From Daphnia carinata (lineage: Eukaryota): a stretch of DNA of 64,000 nucleotides. Under the pieces are notes generated by a model. That model saw only the letters and a list, made by a program, of their open reading frames with translations, was not told where the DNA came from and searched no databases. Each line of letters starts with the position of its first letter. The stretch's first letter is position 1. The translations under genes and the position numbers were made by a program. Below, piece after piece: positions 21,901 to 35,400 of the stretch. The stretch lies in assembly GCF_022539665.2 (NCBI RefSeq), contig NC_081333.1, positions 9,486,001 to 9,550,000 of the forward strand, given 5' to 3'.

Positions 21901-24501
21901 AGGTAATAAGAAAATTTTTTTGTTATGCTCTGGTTCACCGCAAATTTAAAGTAGCGCTAGGGACGCGTTGATAAAAGAAAAAAAAGGAAATTTCTTTCTT
22001 TTTGTTGTTTGTTGATATTTGGCGCAGTGAAGGTTCGACGGGTTGGGTTCTCTGGCTCTCGATAAATTTCATCTGGCAATGCTGTGTTGGCTATACTAGG
22101 TCTTTGGTACTCTTTTTTTGGAAAAAAAACGGAGACCCGCCATTGGACGGGACTGATGTTTTAGGACAGTGAATTTTGTTAATTTTCTTTCATAGTTATC
22201 CGTTTTCATCCAGTTGTGTTTAGCTCTTGAAGGCTAATTACTATCAAATCTGGAGGACGAAGAATTTTGTGATTCCAGTGAGAGGGGTGAGGTGGATGAA
22301 ATGGCAGGTACAAAAATATCGAACGAAAATAAATTCGTATTTTTTTTTTCTTCTACCCTATGCAAACTGTTTCAGTGTTAACAGATATGTCCTAACAAGG
22401 GGTTTCCTTCCGTTTTAAAATACATGTTTCGACACAGCCTTCTCACTGACAGCCGTCTTGTTTGTGTTCTTTTGCAGCTAATGGCGAAATCCAGTGGTGT
22501 TTCTCTCAAGTTAAAGGCACACTAGATGATGAGATCACAGAAGGTAAAATCAGCATTTTCAAACATCCTGTTTTTGTTAACTATGTAAATCTCTTTCCTG
22601 AGTACAAGCCCCATGTTATTGTATGTTAATTTTCAGCTGACATCATCTCCTGTGTTGAATTCAATCATGATGGAGACTTGCTGGCCACCGGTGATAAAGG
22701 TGGACGAGTGGTCATCTTCCAGAGAGATCCAGTGGTCAGTTTGACATTTTGTTTTGGGTATTGTGCCATGTATTCACTTTCTATAACAATCCTTTTTATG
22801 TCTTGCAGTCCAAAACTTCAGTACCTAGACGAGGAGAATACAATGTCTACAGTACTTTCCAGAGTCATGAACCTGAGTTTGATTACCTCAAGTCGTTGGA
22901 GATTGAAGAAAAGATCAACAAAATTAGGTGGCTAAGGCGGAAGAACCCAGCTCATTTCCTCCTGTCGACAAATGACAAGACAATCAAATTGTGGAAAGTT
23001 TCTGAACGAGACAAGAGAGCAGAAGGGTACAACTTGAAGGATGAGACAGGTGAAATGAAGGACAGAGGGGTGTTGACAGGACTGAGGGTAAGATTAGATA
23101 GACTGAGGATCATCACAAGAAGTAGTTTATGACATTTCCATGTTGTTTACTAGGTTCCTGTGTTGAAACCCATGGAACTCATGGTTGAAGCATCACCACG
23201 TCGTATCTATGCGAACGCACACACGTATCACATCAATTCGATCTCCGTCAACTCTGATGCCGAAACGTATTTATCTGCTGACGATTTACGTATCAATCTG
23301 TGGCATTTGGACATTACGGATCAGAGTTTCAACATAGTCGACATCAAGCCAGCCAACATGGAAGAGCTCACTGAAGTCATCACGGCCGCTGAATTCCATC
23401 CGACCGACTGCAACAACTTCGTGTACAGCTCCAGCAAAGGCCTCATACGTCTCTGCGATATGCGGATGGCCGCTTTGTGCGACCGACATGCCAAACGTAA
23501 TTCATCCTTGTTTATCATATGCGCCCTTGAGCAAGATTTATACTTTTGATACGTCCATTGTTTTGGCCATCTTGTGCATCAAGGTTGACTAGAACCATGG
23601 ACGACTATCCTTAAAGATTAACCATACAAATACCTTTGGATTTAAGACAGTCTCCATGAACTAACAGTTCTTGATCTACAACAAGAATCAAGAAGTTTAT
23701 CTTGGTTGGCGGAACTTTGGAGTCTAGCTAAGCATTTATAACTATTAGAAAATCAACTTAATTTCGAAATGTGCTTTGGACGATTGTACCCACCGTAAAA
23801 AGTACTTTAATCTCATAATGCATTGGCTTCTTAATAGTAAAAATTTTCCTGACTGTAGAAGCACAGGTGGTTAGTGTTGCATAGTACTCATGTTTATGTG
23901 TTCATTGTTGCATTTGGACAAACAAAATTAACTTGTTTTATTTTGTTTGCTTTCATTTCTAGTGTTCGAAGAAGCAGAAGACCCGGCCAACCGCAGCTTT
24001 TTCTCCGAAATTATTTCTAGCATTTCCGACGTGAAGTTTTCCCGCTCTGGCCGTTACATGCTATCCCGAGATTACCTCAGTGTGAAAGTGTGGGACTTGC
24101 ACATGGAAACGAAGCCGATCGAGACATATCCAGTGCACGAGTACCTCCGTTCGAAACTCTGCTCTCTTTACGAGAACGACTGCATCTTTGACAAGTTCGA
24201 GTGCTGCTGGGGCAACAACGACCAAGCAGTTTTGACGGGCTCATACAACAACTTCTTTCGTATGTTTGACCGTACCACTAAACGCGATGTCACACTGGAG
24301 GCGTCACGGGAAATCGCTCGGCCTAAGACAACTCTCAAAGCTAAGAAGATCTGCTCTGGAGGTAAACGGAAAAAGGATGAGGTCAGTGTCGACAGTTTGG
24401 ACTTCAACAAGAAAATACTTCACACGGCTTGGCATCCAACCGAGAACATCATTGCAGTCGCGGCCACCAACAACCTGTTCATATTCCAAGATAAGTTTTG
24501 A
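18901..24501 (+). CDS. tws: PP2A regulatory subunit B55 (WD40; twins/PPP2R2), long isoform. Exons 18901-19000, 22478-22543, 22637-22734, 22809-23087, 23154-23496, 23963-24501
   Basis: Hallmark B55 peptides [88 protein letters not shown]; canonical splice sites keep the frame. Confidence 0.96.
22301..22307 (+). CDS. tws: Alternative short first coding exon of twins (ATGGCAG|gtacaa), giving [13 protein letters not shown]
   Basis: The phase-1 donor fits the common acceptor at 22477; B55 proteins commonly have a short MA-G/A start. Confidence 0.7.
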
Positions 24502-27500
24502 AGACCTAAGGAGGAAGAAAAAAAAAGATGAGAAAGAGGCCAGCCGGAAGTGTTCAGAGATTATTAAACGAGACTTAAAGAAATCGAAAGAACAAAAAAA
24601 TAATTAAAAAAAAAAAGACAAAAAAAAGGTTTGAAAGAGAGAGTTGGCTCGTCTTGTTTGTTGCCTGCGAAACACTTCCGAAATGACTATTCTTCATTTT
24701 GTGTTCGATGGTCGATGGGTGGTTGGGCCAGCAGCAAAAGAAAACCGTAAGCACCACAGCCAAATCGTTCATCTTTTGCCATTGGACGACTCTGCCCTTA
24801 ATCATGTCCCTTTTTTTTATTTTTTTTTATTTTTCTTTTTCTTCTTCTTCTTCGTTTCGGAACAAAATAGAAACGGCTGACTATAGCGACTATACAAACT
24901 TTCCCCCTATTTGCTTCTAAGGCTCTGTTACCTTCCACATCTTGAAATGCTGCGATAGCGTCCGTCTATTGCTCTCCACAGCCTGACTGACCGATGGTCA
25001 TCTATGTCAATGGTCCTCATTTTTTTTTTCTCCCTAAACAAAATTTTCTCTCCGCTTCGTGTCAAAATTTTTATTTATTTATTTTGCCTTCCGCCATTGG
25101 CCTAGAATTTCTGTCTCTTGCTCCCCGTCCCTTGCTCTCGGCCCCCTTTTTTTTGCTCCCCGCTCGAGTCGCTATAGTCGAGCGATCTACCACGCAGATC
25201 TGACAGTTTCTTTCGTCGTAGGACATCATTGTCTTCCCGAAGAGTTTATATCGAGAGTGAGGTTAAAAAATCGACTGTGAGAGAAAGTGAATGGATGTGA
25301 TCAAAAAGGCTACAAATGGTTCAATTCCCGCCCCGATTCACGAGAATTGGTTCTTCCCGTAAGGCGTCCATTTAAAGCCTAGTCAGCTCAAGAGACTTTT
25401 TTTTTTCCCTTTTTTTCTTCTTCGTCTTCTCTGCGTGTAGGTTTCGTGTCGGAAATAGGGAATGGAAATAAAATTGTTGAGGGAAGGACCATGATATTAA
25501 TTCATGAAGAATGAAATGAGAAGTCAAGTGTGGCGCAGTATAATTTCTCGACTCTCTATGCCAACAATTTTGCTACAGTGCATCTCTTTCACCATGTTTC
25601 TTGTACACTTCTAAAGTTTTTTCCAACACTTTGCGTGCTCGGAGGGTGGTCCAAAACATCGGCGAAAAGATTTCAGAAAACGGAAGAACTGAAATTCAAG
25701 AAACGTTCGTAAGGAACAAAATCACGTCATATTCTTTATTTTTTTTTTTTTTTTTAAGAATCAGTTCCCTCCATCAAACAAAATGTATCCATCACCTCTA
25801 TTTCTAATCTAACCGCACTTTCGCCACCCCCTGCGGTGTAACACCGACATGGTTCTCGTGTAATTTCCCTTTCACATCCCGCCATGCTCTCCGATTTATT
25901 ATTATTTTTTCTTCAGAGATGGCAAATCCATTTCTTTATTGTAATTTTTTTTTTCGATATCTAGATTCACTTCAAATCCATCTTGTGTTGATGATATGAT
26001 TTTTGTCTTTTCACTTCTTCCCCATTCTTCCTCTCAATACGTGTGAAGTCGGCCACGTTTGTGTACAGATGTGTCTTTTTTTGGTAGCATGTGGAACAAT
26101 ACACTGACCTTTTATGATGGGGTGTTCCCTTTGCTTATGTAACACTACATACATACACACAGGGGTCATTGGGTACGTTCGTCCTGCGCCCAACAGCTTG
26201 GTTGGTCTCAAGGCTACTCTGGCATGACCATCCAAGCAAATGGGGATAAATTTGTTCATTGCGAACAGAAGCTTACCTAGTACCTTTAGATGTCTCCAAA
26301 CAGCAGCCTTGGCATAATCGATGCGGATGTATCCTTTGAAGGTTATAACCAGTTTTGCACAAGGAATGTCGATAAAATAAGCATGTGGCATTGATCGTTT
26401 TCAGTGTTCGAAAGGCACTGCTAGCCGATCAACGAAGTAAGTTTCAAGTATCAGTCCGTATTTTTCTAATAATTTAAAGACTTAATTAATCTACACTATT
26501 TTAATTTTTTATTTGCCAGGCACTCTTTGGAATTTCGTTTTTCGCCTCAAGGATTTCAAAATTCGAACTTGGTGGAATGTATTCACGAGAAACTCGATTG
26601 ACTAGATAACTGCTCTCGTAAATTGATTAACATAGATAAACATCACTGAATAGATTTCTTTTTCTCTTTTTTCAGTTGGAGACCTTTCCTGAATTACCGA
26701 TTTTGTGGAAGTGAGCCAGCTGGCATCGAATTACAGCGGGTCAGCTGAAATTCGAGCCAGTTTTTTTAGAAAGAATCTTGCAACTTAATTCGGGTACCGT
26801 AAAGTGTACAAACACGGATCTCATTTCATTAATTTACAAATAGAAAATCCAAAACGACGATGGATGTCGGGCTGTTAGTTCAAGCCAGAACAGCCTGCAG
26901 GAAAGGACGAGGCAGTTAACACGTGGGCGATCTAAAACTCTGCAAGACCGTGTGACGTCACTTGCGGACGGACCCAAAAGCATTCAGGAAAATTAAGACG
27001 AAGTCGGATAAAAGAAAGCTTTCACCCTCTAGAGGCCCTTTGTATTATTAAATACGATCCTTGCTTTCGAGCAGTGAGTGGCCGAACGTTGGGTGGCCAT
27101 GATGTTCGTCGGAGAAGTCATTAAGGATGGCAACTGTTCAAATGAGAAATGGGACGCCGCAACTTGCTATAAAGGGAGAGTAATATCTCAGGGCCTCCTC
27201 ATTTAGCACGCAGACCATGTAGACAAATTCAAAACGCGTGCAGGCCTTCCCAACATCAACATGGAATAGAATTTCCATGAAACATTGGTCGGTTGGATAC
27301 ATACGTACCAGCCTCCGGCCAATTTTGACCTGTCATTTGAATAGCACGTAGCCATCACGTGATCGCCCGTTAGCTTTATGAATCCGATTTGCGGGGAAAA
27401 CCACAGTGTTCGTTGCAGCATCTTCCTTTTTCGTACGCACGATGTTAACTTTCAAAATGATGGTAGGAGTCTAATTGGATACCAAACGATTTCTTTCGTG

Positions 27501-28440
27501 AAATACCAAACAAAAAAACGTTTTTCTTCCATAACGAGGAGAAATCCGTGCGCGGAAGTTCAAGAATACATTTGGTTTCAAGGAGCCTGAGATATTAAAA
27601 CATCAAGAACACAAACTTCAGCATGATGGAGGACAAGGACAAATCCCGAAACTGATTTTACACGTTAAAATGATAGACTTGTAAAGCATGAGCCAGATTT
27701 TCCTTTCCACTTTCTTTTTTTTTTTTTTTTTGTGTTCTTCTAATTATGTCGAGTGTAAAAGAAAGCAGATCTGAGTTCCATATTTAATAGTAAAATGGAT
27801 CGACTGTACAAAGAAATGTCAAGGCTGGAAATGTAAAGCATTTAATAATGCGGTAGCCGTCCCAAAAGACGGGAGGAGCGAACGTGAAACCAGTAGTAAC
27901 TGGATCTGTCTGGTCCTCGATTCACCAGCAATATGTTTCCTTAGCTTTCAGCGATTGTTCTCAGTCGTTTCGTTTGGCAAAAGTGTCTGGTTTGTGCGCA
28001 AAAAAGAGTGTGATTAAAATGTTAAAACCAAGTGGGTTAAGGCTGGAAGATGTTTTAGTTGAGACAAGGTCTTGGCTTTGTGTGTCTCAGCTGCTTACAA
28101 ACATGGGAGAATGTAATTGAAAGACATAGGAAGCTAGTTTCAACATAAAGGCCATTTTACTAAAATACCCTCTCTAAGGCTAGCCACATGATCGGCGAAA
28201 GACATATAAAAGCTTTTTAAAAAACACAGCCGGTGAACAGTGAAAGAGATGAGAGAATAATACCGTTCGTGGAACAACTTTTCGAGCCAGCAGAACTCAA
28301 AAATGAACTTTAGCTTTCTCCACTGTTGATACGCAGTTGTATTGAAATCTATACTCTTGTTTGTGGTCTACAAAAGACAAAAACTTCGTAGATTTCTTAA
28401 CTAAGACAACAAAACAAAGGCAAATCGACAATGTTGAGAA

Positions 28441-28449
28441 TGATGCAAA
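28441..28449 (+). promoter_or_regulatory. C/EBP-ATF composite (AARE/CARE)-like element TGATGCAAA upstream of the small-ORF gene; second copy TGATGCAAC at 29957-29965
   Basis: Matches the TGATGxAAx consensus; a short motif that can occur by chance. Confidence 0.35.
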
Positions 28450-28751
28450 CTGTACGTGATTTATTGCACGTGCCAAATATATCTTCAGGGGGATAGCAAC
28501 AGGTGGTCCAATGGCCTTTTATTTTTGTTTCTTGAAAGAAAATGTATATTCCGTGCACCTTCTTTTTCTACTTACTGGCACTCAGGGGCGTTTTCCTTAA
28601 AAATAACTAAAAAACGAAGAAAAGTCCTATCGCACAGGTCCCTCCCCACCCTCTCCTCCTTCTGTCCTCCATCTCCTCTAGTCTAGGAGTTTCAAGTCAA
28701 AACACACGTTCAGAGTGAACGGTTACCCCACCGGTCTGTACGGCGTGGGGG

Positions 28752-28790
28752 TATAAATGGCCGACCCTTCTCTCTGATCCAGCACAGTCA
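28752..28790 (+). promoter_or_regulatory. TATA box (TATAAA 28752-28757) with an Inr-like CAGTC about 30 nt downstream
   Basis: Spacing typical of arthropod core promoters; followed by a spliceable exon chain. Confidence 0.65.
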
Positions 28791-28897
28791 ACCTTCCGAC
28801 ATTGTTTAGAATCGGTCAGTCAACTCATTCGCTTCTGTCTCACCTCTAACTTGTTTGATCATCAACGGAAGCTATTTACTTCGATCATCTCTAAATT

Positions 28898-28909
28898 ATG
28901 ATTTACTAG
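28898..28909 (+). other. Minimal uORF1, ATG ATT TAC TAG (MIY*)
   Basis: First ATG after the predicted TSS; ends 18 nt before the ORF2 start. Confidence 0.55.
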
Positions 28910-28927
28910 TACAAAGCATTCGTGTTA

Positions 28928-29279
28928 ATGAAGAACTTCCCTCTCTCAAGCTACGACTTGCTGCTGCTACTTAACGCCAAGTAAGAAATCAGCTGATTGT
29001 TTTGTTTTTCTTATCTCTTGGTTTCGTTTCCAAGTTCGCTTATGCAAAATTACTATGGTTAGGCTGTTATTACATTATCTTTCCTTTTTTTCTGCTTTCG
29101 TAGTTTAAATAAAAACCTACAATCCCTCCTGGGCAGCCGTCTGGGAAACTCAGGCAATCAAAAAGAATTAAGGGTAAGTCGTAAAAACTGTGTAACATTT
29201 TGTCAAATAACTGCGATAAATCAAATTTCGTTGTCTTTCTTGTTCACAGGTTTTGACGTTGCTTCACTACGTTCCTTGA
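28928..29279 (+). CDS. Spliced 50-aa upstream ORF MKNFPLSSYDLLLLLNANLNKNLQSLLGSRLGNSGNQKELRVLTLLHYVP*. Exons 28928-28980, 29104-29173, 29250-29279
   Basis: Donors gtaaga and gtaagt, polypyrimidine acceptors tag and cag; frame stays open across both junctions. Confidence 0.7.
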
Positions 29280-30073
29280 GGTGAGCATCCATTTGCTTTT
29301 TTTTTTCCTTTGTCTCCATGTCGCGTCTGGTTCTTCTGCTCTGTTGCAATACCCTAAATGGCAGGTTCAAAACAACTGACGAAAAGCAAAAAAGAAAAAT
29401 CTACTCGTTTCGTCAGTTGGGCTTTTTCCTTTTTTGAGGTCATCAGGGGCCTCGAGCGATTTGCTGTTTAAAAGTTCTGCGTTTTTTAAAGTAGATTTCA
29501 CGGGGAAAGGCAGGACGTATAGAGGGTAACCAAAACAGTTGCTTCCATGGTTTTTTGGTGTGGCTCGTGATGACTAGTCCCTGGCCGGTTTCGCGATCAC
29601 GTGTACAGTACGTGATCTCTTGATTCGAAATTCTTTGTCTTTTAAAGCAACCGCCTGCGGATTTATACTGAAGGATATTTACAACGCTGAAAGTTTACCG
29701 AGACGTATGCAAACAAGGAAAAGAAAATGGGAAAATGGAGAAAACCCTTTCTAGCGTAACAAGGGAAGTAGTGAGGTTGAATGGAGACCTTGTTCACTGG
29801 CTAGCCAGGATTTCCTTTTCGACTGTGAAGATTATTTGCAAAAGCGGATCAAGGTTCCCAGCCTCACTGGGATATTCAAATGGTACCATATATAAAGCCA
29901 TGCTCGTCCTGCATATTCGTAGGCAGATCTTGCCGGTCGATAGTCAAACCGAGACTTGATGCAACTTTAGTTCCTCGTGTGCAAACCATTCAATGTTATC
30001 CGTAGCCAAATCTCAATCGTATTTAATTTTTCTTCGTCTTCCTTCGGTATATTTAGTTTTGCCAAACACGAAA

Positions 30074-30385
30074 ATGGTGCAAGAATCCGGATCCAAATCT
30101 CAGATGAATGTCAACACGGCCGTCTCACGCAAAGACACTGGATACGTGAGCGATCCAGCGGCTGGCAGGTAACGACGGATGTGAAATCAATTCTATCATT
30201 TCTTAATTGTTTCTTTTGTGGGGTGAAAAAAAATGCGCAGGTCTTACAGCCAAATTGGCGTTAAGCAGCACTACGACTCGTCGAAAAGTTATTCGTCGGG
30301 TCAGAAGATGGACTCCCAAAAGTACGGAGCATGGGGCCCGGTCTACAAGAACAAAGACAATTTCGCCAGCATGCACCTCTTTTAA
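30074..30385 (+). CDS. Spliced 79-aa small protein MVQESGSKSQMNVNTAVSRKDTGYVSDPAAGRSYSQIGVKQHYDSSKSYSSGQKMDSQKYGAWGPVYKNKDNFASMHLF*. Exons 30074-30168, 30241-30385
   Basis: Strong start context aaaATGG, 72-nt GT-AG intron, GC-richer coding-like composition, AATAAA at 30532-30537. Confidence 0.75.
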
Positions 30386-30577
30386 AATTCCACACTGAAA
30401 AAGTGCAAACCCCTTTGTTTACTCATATTCGTAATTTAAAAAACATTGTAGTATTCACACAACTTCACACAAAGCAGAAGTTTACATCATTTGGGGAATT
30501 TTTAATTTTCTTTGCATTCTTTGAAAGGTTAAATAAACATAAAAGAATTGTTTTAATAATTGGAACAACCGATTTAA

Positions 30578-32450
30578 TTAGTTACACGGGTAAACTACCA
30601 AATCTTTGGTAGGCTTCCTATTGCCACCGCTGAAATCGAAACCCAGGATCGAAGTATCGAGAGCCGTATACATTTCGGATGAATCGAAATCTAAACTATA
30701 GACAGGTGACCGCAATTCAGGTTTAACGTAATAAAGTTGAACACATCGCGTTTGTCTCTTATCCCAAAGGCGGATTCCTCCATGCGTCGCTGTTCCCGTC
30801 AAGATGGTCATATTGTTGTCAGTTGCAATACAATTGATAGCGGAATCGTGAGGATCGTCCCATACCGAGACATTGCTTTGGGTTCTGAATTATTGGGGGA
30901 AGAAAACGTTAGAACCGTCAATCCATGTGAAAAATCACTAAATTAAAAAAAAAAAATTCACCTCAAATCCCAAAGGCGTAAGGCGGAGTTGAAATCACCC
31001 GTCAGTACTTCGTTAGGCGATTCAAAATGCACGTCATAAACACCTTCGCCGACTCGAAAATGTCTCCGTAGGGGACAAATTAAGGCACCACTAAAAATGG
31101 AAAGCCGTTTAGTCGCGGTTAATGACTGATGTCTTCATAATCAAACAAGGTCGAATCCGAGTGCTTTACGTACGTTGTCAAGTCAAACAAATGAGACGGT
31201 GGAACACCACCATGTCCAGCAGTCCCCGTACACAATAAGGTACCGGATGGGTCGATATCAAGCGACAATATTCTGTCATCTAAATAAATCTCTTCAGCGG
31301 TATAAATACTTTTCCAACTATGATATGAAATTGAATGGTCAAATCGAAGTACCTAATGAAACAATAACACATTTGACGTTAAACAACAATGGTAAGAAAA
31401 TATACTCTAGCTTCATACCTTGACAAATTTGTCTCTCCCTCCAGACACAATCACATTGTTGAATACGTTGACAGCGGCAACGTCGGATGAATGGCAATTT
31501 GTTTTTTTAAATTGCAGTCTTCCTGTAGATGCCCTCCAAATGAAAATGGATCCATTTCTAAACCGAATGGATTGAAACATTGAAACCGTAAATAACAACA
31601 CAAAGAATATTACGTATCGCCCGCAACGACCACATCTTCATCCCCACTTTTGACGGTAAACCGACTCAAATCTCCTCTAGAACTAGAAAGATTAAGAGTT
31701 GGTCTCATTCTCCCCCGTAAAGATTTACTGTGAAGAAAAGCACATGGTTGGATCCTAGGATATGCTCTGATATGACTTCCTAGATGTAATTTACAGTTTT
31801 ATTATTACATATTTTAAGGTTAGTACATTCTTTTTCTTATGTTAAAACAATGGGGATACAAAGCTTTTTCTCATTTACCTGTTCCAACCCAAAGCACATC
31901 AGATTTCAGAACCAACCATGGAAGTACATGTCTGGAATTTTTAGATAGAGCTTTAGATGCTGATATTCTAAGTAGAATAGTGTAAAAAGAATTTATATAA
32001 TAGTCTCACTTTTCACGAACTGACACAACTGGTTTAACCAGACAGACCCCTGTTTTCCAGTGATTGTAAATTCTGAATCTTAGTTGTGCAGATAAAGAGC
32101 TGTGATTCCTGTAATGCAAAGGGGAAAAAACCAATGTGAAAGAATCAATGCTAATATGTCTTGGCTTACTTGGATCGAAAAATTGAAGATGACTGATTAA
32201 CAAGCAGGAGCTGCCTTGTTACTTGTTCCCAGAGGAAACTATCTGTTCCCAATATGGTATAAAATCGGTGACAGACTTGAGCAATGGAAGGCCACCAACG
32301 CTGCCCACACATTGCAAAAATGTGTAATAAAATATCAGTTGGCAAATTGGCCAATGATGTGGGATGTTCGTCATCGAGTATCGCTAACGAGCCCGTGCTA
32401 AGAGAACTGTTACCGTCTACATTGGCATCCAATTTCGACGTGTAACTCAT
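30578..32450 (-). CDS. FBXW4: F-box/WD40 protein, FBXW4 (dactylin)-like, about 8 exons
   Basis: F-box LANLPTDILLHIF, WD repeats (VIVSGGRDKFVKV), C-terminal GIRLWDKRQ..SPVYSLDFD..YTALD typical of FBXW4; short GT-AG introns. Confidence 0.85.
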
Positions 32451-35400
32451 TCTAATTTTAAAAATCTACTGAGAAGAGTGAAGCATGATCTCATTTCCCT
32501 TTACTCCTAATAGTCCGATTAATAGGCAAGACAGCCAACTACAAACCAAATTGCTAAATGACGTTGAATAAATCAAGCGTGTAAAGTTTAAACTTTTTTG
32601 GTCTGCGGATGACATTATTTTTCTTTTGTAAAAACAAATGACGATCCGAGCACGTATTACCCGAGAAGGCCACTAGAGGCGATACTAGCTTCCATTATTC
32701 GTCCTGTAGAATCCAAATACGCAGGAGAAATAGACAAACAAAAAAATTTACACGACAATCGCTCTTCGAATCACACTTCTACTATCCATCAAGGACATAC
32801 GTGATATTCATACCATTAAAAATTAAAAAAACAAACAAGCAAATGGAAAATCACACCCGCCCAGCCCAGAATTTCGTACGTATTGGCGAAAGAACAATGT
32901 CAAGTTGTGACGCATTATACCTGTCAGTTATTTAGCATTAGCCTCTTAATTACACTACACGGATTGACAATTGGATCGGTATCTATACTTTATTGCTTCA
33001 TTTTTTATTTCCATCATTTTTTTCACGTCTGATTAGAAAGTTAAATGACATATATCGCAGGAAACTTTTGTGATAAAGAAATTTTTATTTCGCTTTAGGT
33101 TTTCAGTTTCCATCTCAACGTGCCCGAGTCAACATTGGTTGAGCTGCAGTGCGTCAGAGTGGCGCTTCGATCGGTCGGCAAAACTTTGGCAGCGTTTCAT
33201 TCGAGACGATCAGTGTCTTCTGCGGAGTCGTAGTTGTTATCTACTCTCCTGTGCTTCATCTACCCATCGTCAGTTTACCGAATTACCTTCACGTGTTTCC
33301 AAGGCCACTCAACATGTTGAACGTCCGGTTCGTCAAAGATGTCGTATAGAAGTTACAGCCATCAGGTAAGGAAATAGAAATTGGCAAACATTCACGTAGT
33401 CAGTACTTCATAGCCCTAGGGTCAAGGTCTTGGCCAGCAGATGATGTGCTCAAGCAAGTTTCTGTTGGCAATCTTCCAAAAAATTTTGAAGGTTAAAGCT
33501 AGACGTAGAGCAGGAAATTGAAGTCTTGTTTCATGACTAAGTTTTTCACTCGATCGATATGGGCACATTTTGGAGCCCAAGCAAGGTCGGTCGAGCGGGT
33601 GGATTTGATTGTTTACAAAATTTTTGTTAAAAGTCGCCGCTAGATGACAGCTCGGGAATTAGGGTCGCCCATTACAATCATAGGCGCCTCGATCTCAATT
33701 GACGATCTCGCGGGATCTCGCACAATTCTTTTTATTTCACGTTTTCCATTTCGTACGAAACAAAGAGAATCGTCTGTAGGTAAAATTCACATGGGATTGC
33801 AATAAGTGACAATATTAAAGCTGATATCGGCAGTAACAAAATGGAATTAGGCGATACATTGTGACGATGAGGGGAGTCTTTCGATGATAAAAGAAACAGC
33901 GCTATCAGCTCTAGACGAAACAAAAGCTAGGCGGGCGGATCGATGTCGTTGACGTCACAGAAAACCCACCGATTGCCTATCTTTCGATACCCAACATTGT
34001 CGTGGAAGCAATTCGCCATTCACCGTCATATATTTTTCGTCTGTCTATCAGTCTGAAAAAAAAACTGCCGAATTTTGCACGTGAAAATCTAATTCAATTT
34101 GACAGGTTCGTGCGACGAATGATTCCTTTTATTCCCGTTGTACTGTAAAGTAAAATTACATTCAAGGAAAGCCCAATTTCGATTAAACTAAAAGAACCGT
34201 TGATTTCCACTTGTTGTGAAACTGAAAGTAGATATCCATCGTTTGACTATGGGCGTATTAAAGGCTCAAGTAATGTCGTAATTCTTTTCCATATTAATGT
34301 TATGTCGGGTTGGTGTCGATAGCTATCATAACGCCTGTCTGAGAAAAAAAAAGGGAACGGACGGGATCTGGCGACGCAGACTCCTGCGTGGCTTTCAGTC
34401 AGGTCTCCGCCCACGTTAGCGTGAGCGACGCCAGCAACAACTTTGCACGTGCGTGTCTCGAACCCAAAAGCAGTGCCCGTGAGCAGTGAAGGCGGACAAC
34501 AGGGAGAATTTCAAAAGAAAAATGTATCTGTAACAAAAAGATCAGTGCGGCTGATCCAGTCGGGGCTTCCAAACGTCATCAAGCCGAGCTCGTCCCAATC
34601 AAGACATTCGTTGTGTTTGCGTCATTCAAAGAATTCTGTACATGTGTGTGTGTGTTTCTCCTCTGTGTTTTTATTCGTTTGTGATTGAAATCACAGGCGA
34701 AGCTGCTGATAATGACAGAAAGTAAGTCACAAACACGACGGATTTTGAGTTAGGCATGTTTTCGTTTCTATTCTTGTTTTTTATTCGATGGGGATTTGTA
34801 GGAAACGAATTTTCTCAAAGTTTTAAGCTTTAACAGCGATTCTTACTTGCCTGTTTACATCTACCATGAAATTCTGTGCGCGAGGCATGAATGAACTGTT
34901 CACACGCAAGGGAAGTAGCACCTTGTCAAGTTGCAAATTTTTTCTTTTTTTACATTTCTTCGATGTAGAATTGCAACCAAAATGATAGGAGTAAACTTTG
35001 AAAGGTGCAAAAAAAGAAAAAGAATCGTCGTATTCGCAGTTTGATCAATACTCTTGCAAACTTTGGCACAGACTCGTTGAATCTTTCATCGTTATTAGAT
35101 TACAATTTGTATGTTGATGGAATCCCACTGAAACTCGCCGGCGCATTGTACAATTAAGTTATGTTTGTGTGTGTGTGTGTGTGTGTGTCTGCTTTCCATC
35201 TTGGCGGCTCCATACTTTTGCAGGCATACAAAACAAATCGTGCGCGTGCATTAAAAAAGGCCGGAGTTTCAACAGTATTGACCCATCGGGTTTCTTCTTA
35301 GCACTCTCATTGGCATGGCTAATGAGATCTCTACAACCTGTGCCCTCCAAGCATGCAGATCAGGCACTGCACATTATTTGCATTTGTCCCTCTGGCCCCA

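Follow-up and report, generated by a model that had tools for sequence, protein, structure and literature searches.

The locus described here is real and well conserved, and it is homologous to a known but uncharacterised dicistronic gene pair of Drosophila. It lies on the forward strand of the window (the whole 64,000-nt stretch of the Daphnia carinata contig NC_081333.1 that was analysed), where five exons assemble into a predicted message carrying a three-codon uORF (MIY*), a 50-aa ORF (ORF1) ending Val-Pro-TGA and a 79-aa ORF (ORF2). The match of ORF1 to the fly uORFs, the shared intron position and the Val-Pro-UGA end together identify the locus as the crustacean member of the CG42502/CG10570 and CG42305/CG17325 pairs.

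Structurally, a TATA box (TATAAA, 28752..28757, + strand as are all features below), which is also present in the orthologous locus L001 (see below), is followed by an Inr-like site at about 28785, as judged by sequence, and then by exon 1 (28785..28980, 5' end approximate), which contains no ATG ahead of MIY* (28898..28909). Exon 2 (29104..29173) holds ORF1 codons 18-41, the 31-nt exon 3 (29250..29280) the final nine codons and stop of ORF1, exon 4 (30057..30168) the remainder of the intercistronic gap with ORF2 codons 1-32, and exon 5 (30241..~30550, 3' end approximate) the ORF2 C-terminus and 3' UTR; a poly(A) signal, AATAAA, sits at 30532..30537 and has its L001 counterpart at 1890. The four introns, all GT..AG with splicing read by coordinates, measure 123 nt (28981..29103, phase 2, interrupting ORF1 after nt 53), 76 nt (29174..29249, phase 0), 776 nt (29281..30056, with conserved blocks at about 29436-29465 and 29595-29617 and a TATAAA at 29891) and 72 nt (30169..30240, phase 2, opening with an in-frame stop). 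Five GT sites in 28785-30550 fit AG/GTAAGT at a minimum of six of eight positions, and four of them are the donors of the gene. Splicing joins 28928-28980, 29104-29173 and 29250-29279 into ORF1 (28928..29279) and 30074-30168 and 30241-30385 into ORF2 (30074..30385), giving the order MIY*, 18 nt, ORF1, 18 nt, ORF2. The original prediction had placed the TATAAA, the five exons, the four GT-AG introns and the AATAAA at these positions, and on re-reading the sequence the coordinates held; the three reading frames that it had derived, with ORF2 18 nt after the ORF1 stop, were likewise reproduced by splicing. A paralogue of the locus was sought by tblastn within the window and none was found, and Rfam gave no matches up to E 1 in 26000-33000; RNA folding yielded z-scores of −0.46 for exon 1 and −1.79 for exon 5. 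A 73-codon out-of-frame ORF from the ATG at 30331 was dropped, its L001 counterpart being 22 codons long.

The start codons are ranked alike by context in the window and in L001: MIY* has a purine at −3, ORF1 a pyrimidine (T in both loci), and ORF2 the optimal A-3/G+4 (acgaaaATGg in the window). In both, MIY* and ORF1 share a frame and are 18 nt apart, and the distance from the MIY* stop to the ORF2 AUG is kept at 189/190 nt; the leader upstream of MIY* diverges between the two loci, while MIY* and its spacings are kept. MIY* itself differs in L001 by a synonymous Tyr codon change only, and the same change is the sole MIY* difference listed in four of four sequencing runs from relatives. From the ORF1 AUG to the ORF2 AUG there is no AUG in any frame at either cladoceran locus (2/2), a stretch with a chance of 0.07-0.09 per locus, which is not significant per locus, and the loci are not independent; by eye, both fly uORFs (2/2) also lack an internal AUG.

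L001 was the one confirmed contig among 76 pattern matches in a metagenome scan, whereas none of 63 pattern matches in GTDB and none of 108 in IMG/VR was confirmed. It represents a more distant orthologous cladoceran locus with the same WD40 neighbour downstream, and it has retained the TATA/Inr block (at 57-105, from TATAAA to ~45 nt beyond it), the five exons, MIY* and the 18-nt spacing to ORF1, as well as the intron-3 TATAAA (29891 in the window, 1223 in L001) with its conserved flanks; the gap between ORF1 and ORF2 is 22 nt in L001 versus 18 nt in the window. Annotated counterparts exist within Daphnia: ORF1 and ORF2 are EFX77027.1 and EFX77028.1 in D. pulex and GHT06_012964 and GHT06_012963 in D. 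sinensis, separate neighbouring hypothetical genes in each case, and in D. magna ORF2 alone was found, as RefSeq LOC116928230. The gene had been called hidden, which is correct only in part, both ORFs being annotated separately in two species and ORF2 in a third. This illustrates a type of annotation error in which the two ORFs of one message appear as separate genes, here in two species of Daphnia.

Evidence for splicing comes from assembled contigs of relatives rather than of the window's organism. None of the 24 listed runs (0/24) holds half of the region's words, and each holds 8-10% of them, from which we take the runs to come from relatives; seven of the 24 were examined as contigs, two of them recorded as RNA and five guessed to be RNA. 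In a first set, junctions 1, 2 and 3 were found in four of four runs and junction 4 in three of four, the remaining run having a loose end there that reads as diverged exon 5; in a second set, which repeated one run from the first, junctions 1 and 2 were again found in all four. Exon 3, with the ORF1 stop, is spliced to exon 4, with the ORF2 start, in 4/4 runs, and the ORF1 stop codon lies on spliced exon 3 in all seven runs examined and in L001. One transcript type therefore joins ORF1 to ORF2 in the relatives' RNA, and the contrary case of two separate transcripts, divided between 29280 and 30057, does not apply there. All four junctions may sit on one molecule: each of them occurs in relatives, and a 2252-nt contig (X11) runs through exons 1-3 into the start of exon 4 with the ORF2 ATG, but no single contig among the listed pieces crosses all four. 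Contigs also extend upstream past the TATA box, so that some leaders may be longer and contain further AUGs, and intron 3 is present unspliced as well, with contigs through it in 4/4 runs. Contigs cannot reveal transcript starts, and contig depths were not used for ranking isoforms.

At the protein level, ORF1 matches D. sinensis GHT06_012964 (P0031) at 50/50 residues and D. pulex EFX77027.1 (P0016) at 47/50. Against L001, 43/49 residues are shared, with 16 synonymous and 7 non-synonymous differences (dN/dS 0.09, Fisher p 2.1e-7, a single pairwise estimate). Five of the six substitutions and the one gap fall in residues 4-9, exon 2 has 11 synonymous and no non-synonymous differences over the 23 aligned codons tested, and exon 3 is identical at every base (exact run 29248-29282), with no synonymous change; in the relatives' runs, 1-2 of about 150 nt of ORF1 differ in each of four. 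ORF1 peptides are 48-50 aa long and end in Val-Pro in 10/10 cases (window, L001, P0016, P0031 and six Drosophila), and the stop codon is UGA in all four ORF1-type genes with DNA examined. AlphaFold2, run on the single sequence, predicts a confident helix over residues 8-32 (block pLDDT 83-94 over residues 11-30). A sequence search of ORF1 against the PDB gave no matches, and its ESM Atlas scores of 0.91 to bacterial clusters, with 117-146 shared features, were treated as chance. A word-based search with full ORF1 returned its own cluster only; such a search does not reach the fly peptides, and absence elsewhere is not implied.

ORF2 is identical at 71/79 residues to its D. magna and at 72/79 to its D. 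sinensis counterpart, with further annotated relatives in D. pulex and D. galeata. It shares 69/79 residues with L001 (dN/dS 0.23, p 4.8e-4, a single pairwise estimate), and outside a near-identical island at 30246-30354 pS is 0.46 and pN 0.13. Judged by these codon comparisons, purifying selection acts on both ORF1 and ORF2, so that the amino-acid conservation that had been put forward as a check (dN/dS below 1) was borne out for each. Of 1.84 billion proteins, HMMER with the exon-5 peptide retrieved 17 with E-values of 0.001 or lower; ten new matches were looked up, and the named ones came from the ostracod Darwinula, the springtail Orchesella and the bugs Panstrongylus, with no protein named as Drosophila among them. 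The family alignment comprised 15 members, two long matches having been dropped as low-complexity; P0010, P0019 and P0028 were excluded for low complexity or deviating length, and P0018, a shorter form of P0020, was not used in alignment A2. Across these members the columns M1, Y60, G61, W63, G64, F73 and H77 are invariant: an MV start is kept, the body is variable and rich in S/Q/K, and the tail is conserved with the motif YGxWGPx[YF]KNxxxFxx[ML]H. Pfam assigned no family to the three exon pieces or the four full peptides, and three of the 15 family members had one weak, unrelated match each. The ORF2 profile found no PDB match, its best ESM Atlas score was 0.76, and AlphaFold2 gave no fold (mean pLDDT 56.5), a prediction of disorder.

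Evolutionarily, ORF1 is, on residue and intron comparison, homologous to the Drosophila peptides CG42502 and CG42305, which are encoded by the uORFs of CG10570 and CG17325, respectively. It aligns to CG42502 without gaps at 25/50 identical residues (by eye, with no E-value computed), and identity climbs from 0/11 at residues 2-12 through 7/15 at 13-27 to 17/23 at 28-50, the C-terminal match running through GSRxGNSxN to the final VP. The first coding piece is 53 nt in both ORF1 and CG42502, in agreement with the CDS coordinates that place the fly intron after nt 53 (PMC7260771, PMC11674832), and 44 nt, at the aligned codon, in CG42305. Any homology of ORF2 to the fly downstream peptides CG10570 and CG17325 appears weaker: an MV start, a length of 73-79 aa and N-x-x-x-F-x-x-[ML]-H are shared, and GxWGP is absent in the fly. 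The small dipteran genes with a Pro-stop uORF to which the original prediction pointed thus correspond to CG42502/CG10570 and CG42305/CG17325, and its dicistronic, conserved-peptide-uORF reading is upheld by the homology of ORF1 and by purifying selection on both peptides. With cladocerans retaining half of the residues of the uORF, its intron position and Val-Pro-UGA, the origin of the pair would go back to the common ancestor of crustaceans and insects, some 450-500 million years ago.

In flies, Hayden and Bosco (2008) included CG17325 (uORF of 48 aa) and CG10570 (uORF of 50 aa) among the genes with conserved-peptide uORFs, tracing the pair within Drosophila only and with function unknown; the number 2 borne by the CG10570 uORF in its table is a hint, and only a hint, of another leader uORF (PMC2276209). 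FlyBase transcripts are all dicistronic at both loci, with none monocistronic in the annotation as reported (PMC4528330), and 63 and 105 nt lie from stop to start (PMC4528330); the genomic gaps derived from CDS coordinates are 60 and 102 nt, multiples of 3 (PMC7260771). CG42305 and CG42502 are abundant, and postsynaptic silencing raises their mRNA levels together with those of heat-shock genes (PMC8026347); a fly expression study mentions that CG17325 interacts with SNR1. No function is given for the pairs in the retrievable text of the literature naming CG42502, CG10570, CG42305 or CG17325, and the literature searched, which included few subscription papers, contained nothing under the Daphnia identifiers of the ORFs and nothing on the pair outside Drosophila; the ESUCA survey of animal CPuORFs (PMC7530721) may already extend the known range of the fly pair. 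Within the scope of these searches, what is new is the occurrence in crustaceans, the intron in common with flies, the conservation of MIY* and the map, residue by residue, of kept positions.

Functionally, the anatomy of the locus and the fly ribosome-profiling rows lead us to infer translational control by ORF1. We posit, on what we judge to be evenly balanced grounds, that ORF1 is a cis-acting, ribosome-arresting uORF that limits ORF2, and that MIY* lets re-initiating ribosomes skip ORF1. Scanning ribosomes would mostly start at MIY*, with its purine at −3, terminate and resume scanning; these would then miss the weak ORF1 AUG, which follows after just 18 nt, and, with no further AUG in between, initiate at ORF2. 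Ribosomes leaking past MIY* would instead engage ORF1, whose conserved C-terminal residues would make them pause at Pro-UGA or close to it, blocking ORF2, which may itself be the effector, a disordered peptide binding a partner via its last ~20 residues. The ranked start contexts, the short hop from MIY* to ORF1, the lack of a further AUG and the optimal ORF2 AUG fit re-initiation that skips ORF1, and the fixed Val-Pro-UGA end, with conservation rising toward the stop, fits nascent-peptide arrest; terminal Pro and C-terminally biased conservation, both of which ORF1 shows, are features of arrest uORFs such as UL4 uORF2 and AdoMetDC.

Poly-Ribo-Seq of fly embryos provides a first comparison (PMC7260771). 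The downstream ORFs are framed there (CG17325, 408/935 reads, p 3.65e-11; CG10570, 20/27, p 1.8e-5), and on the CG42305 uORF the footprint density exceeds that on CG17325 by a factor of about 1.9 (407.7 versus 215.0 and 321.7 versus 170.2 RPKM in two late replicates) while being barely phased (363/1006, p 0.035; PMC7260771). Such dense but hardly phased footprints could be piled-up ribosomes. Poor phasing is common among uORFs, and ORF1 ends in VP, not in the PP of UL4 (see below), points that we count against arrest; just 15% of ribosome-bound uORFs are framed in the same dataset, from which its authors infer non-productive binding (PMC7260771). The second fly uORF, CG42502, has few reads, 5/13 in frame, and is not more densely covered than CG10570 (3.6/5.7 versus 6.2/4.1 RPKM; PMC7260771). 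The separation of MIY* from ORF1, which contrasts with the overlap in AdoMetDC, the AUG depletion that falls short of significance at each locus and the chance of longer leaders weigh on the same side. The predicted ORF1 helix would suit a free binding peptide equally, and it too is counted against arrest.

That last property belongs to the main competing account, in which two free microproteins are made constitutively by leaky scanning, ORF1 acts in trans and the shared mRNA couples their amounts only, an account that we regard as possible, if on the doubtful side. ORF1 is conserved from residue 13 on, keeps its length and is predicted helical, its weak start context and lack of an internal AUG fit leaky scanning equally well, and the bicistronic fly peptide pair Sloth1/2 offers a precedent (PMC9681215); yet two free peptides would need neither the fixed Val-Pro-UGA end, nor the rise of conservation toward the stop, nor the conserved tiny uORF, and the dense, hardly phased binding of fly CG42305 also speaks against them.

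Delayed re-initiation of the ATF4/GCN4 type, with MIY* permissive, ORF1 inhibitory through a sequence that does nothing but block re-initiation, and eIF2-alpha phosphorylation raising ORF2, seems to us distinctly unlikely. The three-codon first uORF recalls ATF4 and the terminal Pro GCN4 uORF3/4, and the rise of the fly homologues with heat-shock genes after postsynaptic silencing (PMC8026347) is a further point in its favour. Those fly data, however, are mRNA levels and not translation; the 18 nt from the MIY* stop to the ORF1 AUG would be short for a choice timed by the ternary complex, ORF1 does not overlap ORF2, and the 17/23 identical C-terminal residues between Daphnia and Drosophila would go unexplained. 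There is a slim prospect that most ORF2 comes from a shorter transcript without ORF1, driven by a second promoter in intron 3, in which case ORF1 would not gate it: the kept TATAAA at 29891 with its flanks and the contigs through intron 3 in 4/4 runs agree with such a promoter, whereas the junction of exon 3 to exon 4 in 4/4 runs, and the lack of monocistronic transcripts in FlyBase at both fly loci, point the other way.

Slimmer still is fusion of ORF1 and ORF2 into one protein by UGA readthrough or frameshifting. The 18-nt gap in the window is in frame and stop-free, as by eye are the loose ends of two relatives, the fly genomic gaps are multiples of 3 and the stop is UGA in 4/4 genes, but readthrough and +1, +2 and −1 shifts across the 22-nt gap of L001 all miss the ORF2 frame, so that a conserved fusion fails in the second locus. 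Two further points count against fusion: UGA-G is a non-leaky context, and the optimal ORF2 AUG context and MV start are kept across the family. Finally, conservation of the region for an RNA-level reason, with ORF1 not coding, has next to no probability and is largely refuted by the codon pattern, since the absence of synonymous change in exon 3 to L001 and the 1-2 of about 150 nt differing in 4/4 runs are set against dN/dS of 0.09 (Fisher p 2.1e-7), 11 synonymous and 0 non-synonymous differences in exon 2, 25/50 residues and an intron position in common with flies, no Rfam match and folding z-scores of −0.46 and −1.79.

The arrest-type reading invites a bolder and rather unlikely extension, namely that a switch has been kept across Pancrustacea in which a tiny shielding uORF and a 50-aa arrest peptide, sensing a metabolite or stress, gate a small disordered effector. 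To our knowledge, few uORF peptides that arrest ribosomes and respond to a ligand have been described in animals. If the extension were true, an unusually old arrest peptide of animals would here control a micropeptide and not an enzyme or transcription factor; it would have arisen independently of the plant AdoMetDC switch, the 20-residue tail of ORF2 would be an undescribed binding motif, and the switch would be open to fly genetics at once. The cladoceran comparison, for its part, marks which residues matter in both peptides.

Among known uORF systems, plant AdoMetDC resembles the locus in layout: a tiny uORF of 2-3 aa and a small uORF of 48-55 aa with Pro near its end (PMC2811004) parallel MIY* placed just ahead of a conserved ~50-aa uORF with terminal Pro, and a downstream ORF follows. 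The plant uORFs overlap by one nucleotide, whereas MIY* and ORF1 are 18 nt apart in the same frame; the tiny uORF has the stronger context here, the reverse of the plant model, and the downstream ORF encodes a 79-aa peptide and no enzyme. The re-initiation leaders of ATF4 and GCN4 are another of the nearest working models (PMC5972666, PMC10275272), with a three-codon first uORF followed by a longer one and with Pro as last codon suppressing re-initiation at GCN4 uORF3/4 (PMC5972666). In the Daphnia locus, however, 18 nt separate the two uORFs, and the second shows conservation of its peptide; unlike in ATF4, it stops 18-22 nt before the ORF2 AUG with no out-of-frame overlap with the main ORF. 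The cytomegalovirus UL4 uORF2, a weakly initiated uORF ending Pro-stop upstream of a main ORF, stalls ribosomes at its terminal Pro (PMC9648851); it ends in PP rather than VP and has 22 rather than 50 codons, and for ORF1 a stall is proposed. Each of these three models has a defining feature that the locus fails, and it is a member of none. Under the CPuORF definition of Hayden and Bosco, by comparison, ORF1 has a dN/dS of 0.09, significantly below 1, and is unfused to ORF2. Compared with the fly pairs themselves, the locus lacks a second copy in the window, where flies have an adjacent pair, its gap is 18 nt with an intron beside the stop, it has extra introns, ORF2 carries the YGxWGP motif absent from the fly peptides, and cladocerans conserve MIY*, a tiny uORF of a kind not established in flies. 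With those pairs it shares a homologous uORF placed first on one mRNA, a phase-2 intron after nt 53, the Val-Pro-UGA end and a short downstream ORF that starts with MV and ends N-x-x-x-F-x-x-[ML]-H-x-x.

Within exon 5 of the two-peptide gene, an island at 30246-30354 is nearly identical to positions 1595-1703 of L001, a metagenome contig carrying an orthologue of the whole gene layout, with 108 of 109 nucleotides shared despite the distance of this cladoceran; a single mismatch separates two perfectly matching segments, 53 and 55 nt long. No synonymous difference was found in the 35 codons of the island, against a pS of 0.46 outside it. Among closer Daphnia, divergence from the window is greater in the island than in other parts, and in D. 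magna residues 37-52 of the 79-aa second peptide (ORF2) hold 7 of the 8 differences. The island could have arisen through introgression or conversion, collapse during metagenome assembly, or constraint limited to a lineage.

Exon 3 (within 29248-29282), which encodes the last nine codons and the stop of the 50-aa first peptide (ORF1), likewise lacks synonymous changes relative to L001, versus 11 in exon 2. From this codon pattern, splicing or codon-level constraint may be acting at the presumed ribosome pause site where ORF1 ends. Further 5', the 18-nt spacer between the tiny uORF MIY* and ORF1 (28910-28927) is in frame and free of stops in both window and L001, and with 14 of 18 bases in common it is better kept than the leader 5' of MIY*.

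Conservation with L001 extends into intron 3, at 29436-29465, 29595-29617 and 29835-29975. One block contains AGGTCA, preceded by a pyrimidine run and AG, which we take to be a possible acceptor or nuclear-receptor half-site; another forms an interrupted palindrome around an E-box, CACGTG, and a TATAAA at 29891 also lies within kept sequence. Assembled contigs from related organisms include the unspliced intron, at ~92% identity to the window. Such contigs also reach unbroken up to ~600 nt 5' of 28500 and are spliced to exon 2, and additional TATAAA motifs occur at 28205 and 27168. The region at about 27900-28750 may belong to isoforms with a longer leader or be transcribed from further upstream.

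Upstream, one of 20 frames taken into a Pfam scan gave a match: a plus-strand open frame (23932-24501) with weak WD40/WDR5-type matches, a candidate second WD40 gene on that sequence similarity. Downstream, a multi-exon WD40-repeat gene on the minus strand (30578 to beyond 31600) lies tail to tail with the two-peptide gene, its 3' end ~40 nt from the latter's poly(A) signal; one relative's contig (X5) runs continuously from exon 5 into it. It is the neighbour in L001 too, and may be FBXW4-like.
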